Part shown: piece after piece, positions 912-1,367 of the stretch
Layout of the letters: every line of letters begins with the position of its first letter
Numbering within the stretch: the stretch's first letter is position 1
Origin: Escherichia coli
Lineage (GTDB): Bacteria > Pseudomonadota > Gammaproteobacteria > Enterobacterales > Enterobacteriaceae
NCBI RefSeq assembly: GCF_003790525.1
Contig: NZ_CP033635.1
Length of the DNA stretch: 64,000 nucleotides
Reading direction: 5' to 3' (one strand)
Made by a program: the position numbers and the translations under genes
The notes under the pieces: model-generated
The model's database searches: none
Told to the model about the DNA's origin: nothing
The model's input: the letters and a program-made list of their open reading frames with translations, nothing else

Positions 912-1367
912 ATGCTGGATATAATCCTGGCGACGAGAGATATTTATTTTGAAAAAGCCCTGCGAGAGATATTTGGAACCGTAAGCAGTCGAATCAGATA
1001 TATAGAAGATGCCATATCAGACAGAAGAAGGGTGCAGTCAGGCAGGTCATTCAGATATTATTTTGTATTCTGTGATGATGAGTATACAGATATTGTTCGT
1101 ATTCTTTTTACCGGAGAGGCCTGCTGTATTCTGAATAAGTCGATGCTGAATCTGAGAGCGGCCGGAGGTGTGTTGACGCTGGAAGAGCGCAGAGCGGTAC
1201 TGAACCGGTATTACAGAGGTTTAAGTATTGCGGAGATTACAGAAGAGACGGGGCAGAATGACAAGACGGTATACGGTCATCTTCGTCGTGCACTGCAGCG
1301 GTCTGGATTCCGGAAGGGGCGTTTTATAAAGGGGAGAGAAGCGGCGGGGGATTCAGGTGTTGAATAA
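912..1367 (+). CDS. Small putative transcriptional regulator with C-terminal sigma-70 region-4 / LuxR-like helix-turn-helix
   Basis: 151-aa ORF; C-terminal LTLEERRAVLNRYYRGLSIAEITEETGQNDKTVYGHLRRALQR resembles region-4 type HTH. N-terminal domain not recognised. Confidence 0.4.
   Translation: MLDIILATRDIYFEKALREIFGTVSSRIRYIEDAISDRRRVQSGRSFRYYFVFCDDEYTDIVRILFTGEACCILNKSMLNLRAAGGVLTLEERRAVLNRYYRGLSIAEITEETGQNDKTVYGHLRRALQRSGFRKGRFIKGREAAGDSGVE

Follow-up and report, generated by a model that had tools for sequence, protein, structure and literature searches.

A predicted TosE-family regulator encoded directly behind a trimeric autotransporter adhesin gene in Escherichia coli

What is the small helix-turn-helix (HTH) protein encoded directly behind an adhesin gene of E. 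coli, and which genes might it control? The question is posed by an open reading frame (ORF) at positions 912 to 1367 (plus strand) of a 64-kb stretch of DNA, the whole of which we refer to as the window. The ORF is intact, encodes 151 amino acids plus a stop from an ATG start codon, and is preceded by a Shine-Dalgarno motif read from the sequence (GAGG, positions 901 to 904, plus strand, 7 nt 5' of the ATG). PGAP names its product "sigma factor-like helix-turn-helix DNA-binding protein" (WP_000884153.1). Upstream lies the 3' part of a gene for a YadA-like trimeric autotransporter (TAA) adhesin (positions 1 to 850, plus strand; protein end WNAGVNFEF), whose 5' part is outside the window because the window edge falls inside the gene. 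A gap of 61 nt separates the adhesin stop codon (positions 848 to 850) from the start of the ORF; thus, the placement directly 3' of the adhesin gene given in a prior, sequence-only reading of this DNA was confirmed. The visible portion of the adhesin stalk contains tandem repeats of 99 bp (33 amino acids; 2.8 copies, 97% match) at positions 1 to 282 (plus strand).

The adhesin-regulator module sits in an IS-rich genomic island. Its right-hand edge as a conserved unit is marked by the transposase gene of IS1414 (IS256 family; positions 1655 to 2860, minus strand), near which similarity to other strains stops. Compared with strain GF60, isolated from chicken meat, the window is 99.8% identical over 25 kb. 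IS1414 separates the adhesin module from two further features of the same island, namely, a cluster of YaiO, acetyltransferase, glycosyltransferase, and deacetylase genes (positions 3032 to 6229, minus strand) and a gene for an S6-family (SPATE) autotransporter protease (positions 21663 to 25487, plus strand). A small, very hydrophobic ORF lies 3' of the regulator gene at positions 1449 to 1574 (plus strand). It comprises 41 amino acids when read from a TTG and 31 amino acids when read from the ATG at position 1479 (MKITKAAFIFALSVWSVAVICLLLFVLVVLG). The small ORF has no family match, and it is fused to the regulator in a frameshift allele (P0002, 220 amino acids). An Rfam search of positions 700 to 1700 gave no match.

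The complete TAA gene is present in GF60 (L002:19550-21097), where it encodes 515 amino acids comprising a signal peptide, head repeats, a stalk with 33-amino-acid repeats, and an anchor ending in GVNFEF. The TAA anchor matches the YadA anchor structure 2lme with an E value of 2.1e-17. The copy number of the 99-bp stalk repeat (window positions 1 to 282; L002:19760-20360) is strain dependent, with two copies in the GF60 translation. The passenger part is mosaic, its GF60-type segment reaching at least 80% coverage in only 13 of 5,426 genomes; the anchor and the regulator, in contrast, are at least 99% identical in most of the genomes that carry them (166 genomes for the anchor and 182 for the regulator). 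An island of ∼15.5 kb interrupts the adhesin gene in several strains, one of them an O111:H8 strain. This island occupies L001:4257-19715, occurs also in loci L005 and L007, and has its insertion point inside the adhesin gene, near L002:∼20061. Its cargo in L001 consists of a tyrosine integrase, IncQ-type repA/repC, trbJKL, an arsenic resistance operon, ISCR2, and sul2; the visible part in L005 (the O111:H8 strain) carries the same integrase and rep genes along with TEM-1, IS26, and aph(3')-Ia. PGAP annotates the split adhesin as a 372-amino-acid "YadA-like" remnant, and the regulator gene downstream of it is intact.

Among 5,426 complete E. coli genomes, 183 carry the regulator gene, which is chromosomal in all of them and at least 99% identical in 182 of the 183. 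Many carriers are poultry or human extraintestinal isolates. The ORF at 912 to 1367 recurs unchanged in L001, L002 (GF60), L005, and L006, and in all it is identical in five of the six loci compared; together, these identities leave no variation for a selection test. Public names for the product are inconsistent and include "sigma-70 family RNA polymerase sigma factor," "sigma factor-like HTH protein," and "hypothetical protein," and JGI/IMG names it "NarL/FixJ family response regulator."

The protein divides into an N-terminal domain with a predicted, truncated receiver-like fold (amino acids 1 to 78; positions 912 to 1145, plus strand) and a C-terminal three-helix HTH (amino acids 87 to 131; positions 1170 to 1304, plus strand), the latter delimited by Pfam PF08281, the helices of the structural model, and alignment. 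The HTH, already recognized from the sequence alone, was upheld by a match of Pfam Sigma70_r4_2 to amino acids 87 to 130 above threshold (30.9 bits against a gathering cutoff of 25.7; E value, 2.2e-07). Other Pfam HTH models fell below their own thresholds on the query, and GerE (PF00196) was missing from the Pfam matches listed, even at an E value of ≤10. Describing the N-terminal domain as unrecognized had likewise been fair, as searches of Pfam, NCBIfam, and the PDB by sequence yielded no match to the N-terminal ∼85 amino acids.

Searched with the single sequence, collections of 5.8 billion and 1.84 billion proteins yielded only near-identical E. coli copies or fragments, plus four marginal matches confined to the HTH. 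TosE, the LuxR-type regulator encoded at the tail of the tosRCBDAEF operon, was absent from these results: phmmer, run exhaustively over the 1.84 billion representatives, gave no match to it at an E value of ≤0.001. When the query was run by tblastn against plasmids, weak matches were obtained (E value, 0.1), four of which spanned amino acids 2 to 132. All four represent one TosE-like gene on E. coli IncF plasmids, which lies 3' of a type I secretion system and a 2,642-amino-acid Ig-like adhesin and precedes another LuxR-type gene. This plasmid region shares 74% DNA identity with the tosRCBDAEF operon tail of strain CFT073; thus, the two plasmid genes are homologues of TosE and TosF. By BLASTP, the query aligned with the plasmid TosE at an E value of 5e-10 and with CFT073 TosE at 8e-9, in both cases end to end (query amino acids 2 to 132 against TosE amino acids 1 to 143). 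With TosF, the query has the HTH alone in common. The N-domain alone, used in tblastn against plasmids, gave no match at an E value of ≤10.

Further tblastn searches with TosE identified three more clades (35 to 37% identity to TosE), and the four TosE clades were aligned, with the query left out, to give a profile termed A4. In hhalign, the query matched a TosE-only profile with 93.8% probability (E value, 1.7e-7) and A4 with 97.0% probability (E value, 1.2e-10; 129 columns). The corresponding hidden Markov model (HMM) scores against A4 were 37.7 bits for the full length (p, 1e-13), 23.7 bits for the N-domain (p, 2.4e-9), and 22.4 bits for the C-domain. The N-domain score had risen from 15 to 23.7 bits as the profile gained clades, a gain with profile diversity that is expected of true homology. 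The A4 HMM was also specific, matching a single ORF (the regulator) among 378 six-frame segments of the window. None of the controls, namely, the adhesin-linked LuxR proteins of CFT073 (EcpR, HyxR, HyxA, and TosF) and TosR, showed N-domain similarity to the query, and their C-domain z-scores were at most 5.8, compared to 12.4 for TosE. Kinship with AutA/AutR, HyxR, EcpR, or TosF through the N-domain was rejected in the absence of any such similarity.

A search of the word-indexed 5.8-billion-protein collection with the family profile returned TosE and query clades only. A pattern scan of 100,044 species (one genome per species) retrieved one metagenome-assembled contig identical to TosE and no member outside E. 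coli-like DNA. The TosE family thus appears to be E. coli restricted, having been found only in E. coli. The link between the query and TosE is one of profiles and context, with no database-wide single-sequence match. On this evidence, the window ORF is best classified as a divergent, solo member of the TosE family, which places a previously unplaced protein; the BLASTP, hhalign, and HMM results supersede the earlier statement that it could be assigned to no characterized family.

Structural modeling bears on what the N-terminal domain may do. A single-sequence AlphaFold model was uninformative (pLDDT, 37), and a model built from nine family sequences reached a modest mean pLDDT of 58. In the latter, the N-domain is of the β-α-β-α-β-α-β type (β1, amino acids 2 to 7; α1, 11 to 21; α2, 31 to 42; β3, 49 to 54; α3, 56 to 65; β4, 71 to 75), and the C-domain has helices at amino acids 90 to 101, 106 to 113, and 117 to 131, followed by a disordered tail. 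The best Foldseek matches of this model are full-length NarL/FixJ regulators (including FixJ, DesR, RcsB, EvgA, NarL, and VpsT). Asp55, which follows β3, is invariant in every clade. It is also the only part of the phospho-acceptor pocket that is kept: Thr8-Arg9-Asp10 stands in place of the acidic pair, and both strand 5 and its Lys are absent. The modeled N-domain thus resembles a receiver domain that ends early, after strand 4, and we read it as a pseudo-receiver. A phosphorylatable response regulator was rejected because the acid pocket is missing, and no kinase gene was found among the neighbors. A phage terminase small subunit was also rejected, as a near-threshold Terminase_5 match reflects general resemblance among HTH domains and the surroundings are not those of a prophage.

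RcsA, BglJ, GadE, and MatA/EcpR are said to form heterodimers with a genuine member of the NarL/FixJ family, for example, RcsB. By analogy, the pseudo-receiver of the query could serve as an auxiliary partner that heterodimerizes with such a regulator (e.g., RcsB) and redirects it, for example to flhDC. The ranking of structural matches within the NarL family is not discriminating at a pLDDT of 58, and the query has no sequence similarity to the EcpR N-domain; we consider this mode of action improbable.

The Pfam result itself invites a different assignment, since the best match is Sigma70_r4_2, ECF sigma models match weakly, and sigma region 4 domains occur among the structural matches. The protein might then be a sigma factor fragment, in line with database names such as "sigma-70 family RNA polymerase sigma factor," or, as had been proposed from the sequence, an anti-sigma-like factor. 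The region-4-like HTH is all that matches, with no region 2 in Pfam or NCBIfam, and NCBIfam sigma models score at most 21 bits against cutoffs of 42.9 to 350 while aligning to amino acids 67 to 130 only. The best solved relative of the family profile by sequence is GerE (1fse; E value, 5.8e-4), the best structural matches are of the NarL/FixJ type, and the modeled N-domain is alpha/beta, unlike the helical sigma region 2; nor was any anti-sigma family matched. With region 2 absent, a sigma or anti-sigma factor is largely refuted and scarcely credible here. The fourth (dimerization) helix of GerE-type domains is missing from the query model, which would account for the better match to the sigma region 4 model in Pfam. 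The plasmid TosE does reach Pfam GerE, at 23.9 bits against a cutoff of 23.5.

The genomic setting of the relatives is in keeping with the TosE assignment. In the window and in six of the six distinct relatives examined, the TosE-like gene is found at the tail of a locus encoding large secreted surface proteins and is read from the same strand. The genes found 5' of it encode TosA in CFT073 (L004); a type I-secreted Ig-like adhesin on the plasmid of strain CI5 (L003); a giant protein with at least 19 GA-like repeats and then an RTX protein on two IncF plasmids (L009 and L010); TAAs on plasmid p100 of strain 317 (L012); and a TosA-like protein followed by two TAAs in STEC639 (L011). On p100, the TAA encoded closest to the regulator resembles the window TAA in its anchor (50% identity; E value, 3e-36) and shares the GVNFEF end. 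In STEC639, an anchor piece of the second TAA (63 amino acids) is 76% identical to the window anchor, and TosE-like and TosF-like genes come next. Three TosE-like clades thus lie 3' of TAA genes with related anchors. The sequence-only reading had named random genomic contexts of the homologues as a ground for refutation, and the contexts did not turn out to be so: the placement of the relatives is nonrandom, all six being behind genes for large secreted surface proteins, with TAA neighbors in three clades and different adhesin types in the others.

Several of these loci have features of their own. The TosE-like ORF of the IncF plasmids (L009:9001-9570 and L010:9001-9570) encodes 189 amino acids, of which the annotation covers the last 86 alone ("LuxR C-terminal-related"). 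At this locus, the giant GA-repeat protein also has EF-hand-like motifs, the RTX-repeat protein is 622 amino acids long, and a PapB/FocB-type regulator gene is found near the TosE-like ORFs. The STEC639 adhesin island (L011:1893-10116) contains genes for a TosA-like RTX protein, a 580-amino-acid TAA, a frameshifted second TAA (ending in GVNWEF), a 70-amino-acid ORF, and the TosE-like and TosF-like proteins; the island has the look of a transitional form, intermediate between tos operons and the module of TAA and regulator genes. In GC content, tosE and tosF (28 to 29%; L004:16200-17213) differ from tosA (51%; L004:8232-16079), and the regulator ORF (46%) differs from the adjoining adhesin gene (51%). 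These values suggest that, in composition, the regulators have a history different from that of the adhesin genes. No TosF-like gene was found behind the L009/L010 and L012 members, and no TosF or TosR relative was found in the 64-kb window. Judged by gene content, pairing with TosF and TosR is a property of tos operons and not of the wider TosE family.

The missing TosF partner can also be taken as a sign that the regulator is a decaying passenger, that is, a leftover of a tos-like island without function in this strain. Its surroundings are an IS-rich mosaic, a resistance island interrupts the adhesin gene in several strains, an IS element occupies the gap in one strain, and frameshifted and truncated regulator alleles are on record, one of them in a cluster of 116 member sequences. 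The exact 151-amino-acid sequence nevertheless occurs intact on at least 1,000 contigs, the gene is annotated as intact in every complete genome listed, and the start codon, the Shine-Dalgarno motif, both domains, and the family-invariant residues have been kept. Decay to a functionless remnant is thus quite improbable.

How the gene may be expressed is suggested by the 61-nt gap. A stem-loop at positions 872 to 895 (plus strand) has 10 pairs (8 G-C, 1 A-U, and 1 G-U), a GAGU loop, and no U-run. Folding of positions 845 to 930 (86 nt) gave a minimum free energy of -34.3 kcal/mol (z, -2.75), and a terminator scan did not call the stem-loop. No sigma-70-like promoter was found in the gap, and one promoter-like site lies ∼200 nt 5' of the adhesin start codon. 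Hairpins recur between other adhesin and regulator genes, with 10 pairs and a U-run in the tosA-tosE gaps and a 12-pair stem in the TAA-regulator gap of p100. We propose that the stem-loop at 872 to 895 attenuates or stabilizes the transcript rather than terminating it fully; the regulator would then be co-transcribed with the adhesin, and the distal gene would be less expressed. In strain 1517k, IS421 (L007:5834-6946) is inserted inside this hairpin (approximately window positions 878 to 889) and parts the regulator from the adhesin gene; the flanks of the element overlap by 12 bp (target duplication).

Location directly 3' of the adhesin gene would also suit a strictly locus-specific regulator that binds the long AT-rich region 5' of the adhesin gene to turn only that promoter up or down, as feedback. 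Some ∼860 bp of noncoding DNA (L002:18690-19550), which includes the promoter-like site, precedes the adhesin gene and travels with the module. TosE weakly matches the NCBIfam model for EcpR (E value, 0.003), a regulator acting on ecp. There is a precedent in AutA and AutR, LuxR/GerE regulators that are encoded beside the autotransporter gene upaB and bind its promoter (PMC4844996). However, the sole phenotype cited for the TosE family is suppression of motility, not control of an adhesin promoter (PMC5956150, PMC7545054), and tos itself is described as being controlled by TosR, H-NS, and Lrp (PMC5956150). A search for inverted-repeat operators 5' of the adhesin gene found none, and the regulator is intact where the island splits the adhesin gene, though these splits are recent. 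Such dedicated control is possible but on the unlikely side. The same noncoding DNA contains a dyad whose arms are 9 bp long (TCACGTGGTGCGTGCCACGTGA, then AATTTTTG; L002:19097-19118), at ∼430 bp 5' of the adhesin start codon. The scan scored it as terminator-like, and a protein-binding site is equally possible.

Starting from the gene, its domains, its homology, and its conserved genomic position, all of which are established here, we infer co-transcription with the adhesin, DNA targets, and a phenotype of the regulator. The explanation that we favor, with a probability of roughly 60%, is that the ORF encodes a divergent, two-domain TosE-family regulator that forms the tail gene of a two-gene adhesin module, is made together with the adhesin, and tunes other programs. 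Transcription would start at the adhesin promoter and read through the GC-rich hairpin, which lacks a U-run, into the regulator gene, such that the regulator level would track adhesin transcription and stay lower. The regulator would then bind DNA and adjust other programs during adhesin production, and feedback on adhesin genes is possible. By analogy with TosE/TosF, flagellar motility is the first candidate target, and motility or other surface programs may be adjusted. Suppression of motility is reported for TosE and TosF together, with the regulatory mechanism given as unknown (PMC5956150, PMC7545054).

The wider distribution allows a bolder, tentative proposal, namely, that TosE-like genes constitute a portable, E. 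coli-specific "adhesin-tail" cassette that wires acquired surface proteins into the motility/surface program, maybe through docking of the pseudo-receiver, with its invariant Asp, onto a resident NarL/FixJ regulator such as RcsB. We rate this extension as unlikely. As far as the literature shows, the occurrence of TosE-like genes beside several classes of surface proteins is new; these regulators are not confined to the tos operon and accompany at least three classes of secreted surface proteins. The advance is incremental, giving better annotation rather than a new mechanism or kind of system. The TosE link does provide a testable hypothesis, reciprocal control of adhesion and motility, and connects TosE/TosF function to the wider question of how E. 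coli integrates newly acquired adhesins.

Among known systems, AutA/AutR (HyxA/HyxR) of extraintestinal and avian pathogenic E. coli resemble the query in being LuxR/GerE-type regulators encoded beside an autotransporter adhesin gene, upaB/hyxB; they were shown to bind the promoter of that gene and to act globally (PMC4844996). They differ in being larger (253 to 264 amino acids), form separate transcription units, and lack N-domain similarity to the query. By sequence, they are an analogue with no detectable kinship. The NarL/FixJ (LuxR/GerE-type) regulators and their receiver-defective relatives (RcsB, NarL, and EcpR/MatA) share the order of a receiver-like alpha/beta domain and then an HTH; they supply the best structural matches of the query model, and the family profile matches GerE. 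In contrast to these proteins, the query has an N-domain that ends after strand 4, lacks the acidic pair and the strand-5 Lys, has no kinase gene nearby, shows no fourth GerE helix in its model, and reaches no curated response-regulator model.

Closer in arrangement are p100 (strain 317) and STEC639, in which a TAA gene is followed by a TosE-like gene and the related anchors end in GVNFEF or GVNWEF. Their regulators are nearer to TosE (33 to 35% identity in the family alignment) than to the query. In BLASTP against the query, the p100 regulator shows N-terminal similarity only and the STEC639 regulator reaches an E value of 2e-6; unlike the query locus, STEC639 has kept a TosF-like gene. TosE of uropathogenic CFT073 (tosRCBDAEF) is just 22 to 26% identical to the query, and the two loci differ in several respects. 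In the window, the adhesin belongs to the trimeric (type Vc) autotransporters, whereas TosA is a type I-secreted RTX protein; TosF and TosR are missing nearby, GC content is 46% rather than 28%, the hairpin in the gap lacks the U-run of the tos hairpin, and the motility phenotype is known for TosE/TosF only. The two proteins (151 amino acids here and 160 in TosE) are collinear from end to end across both domains and share invariant Thr8, Glu14, Cys54-Asp55, Phe66, Gly68, and a KTVYxH recognition helix. Both genes lie directly 3' of an adhesin gene that is read from the same strand, the gap between the two containing a stem-loop, and both appear to be restricted to E. coli.
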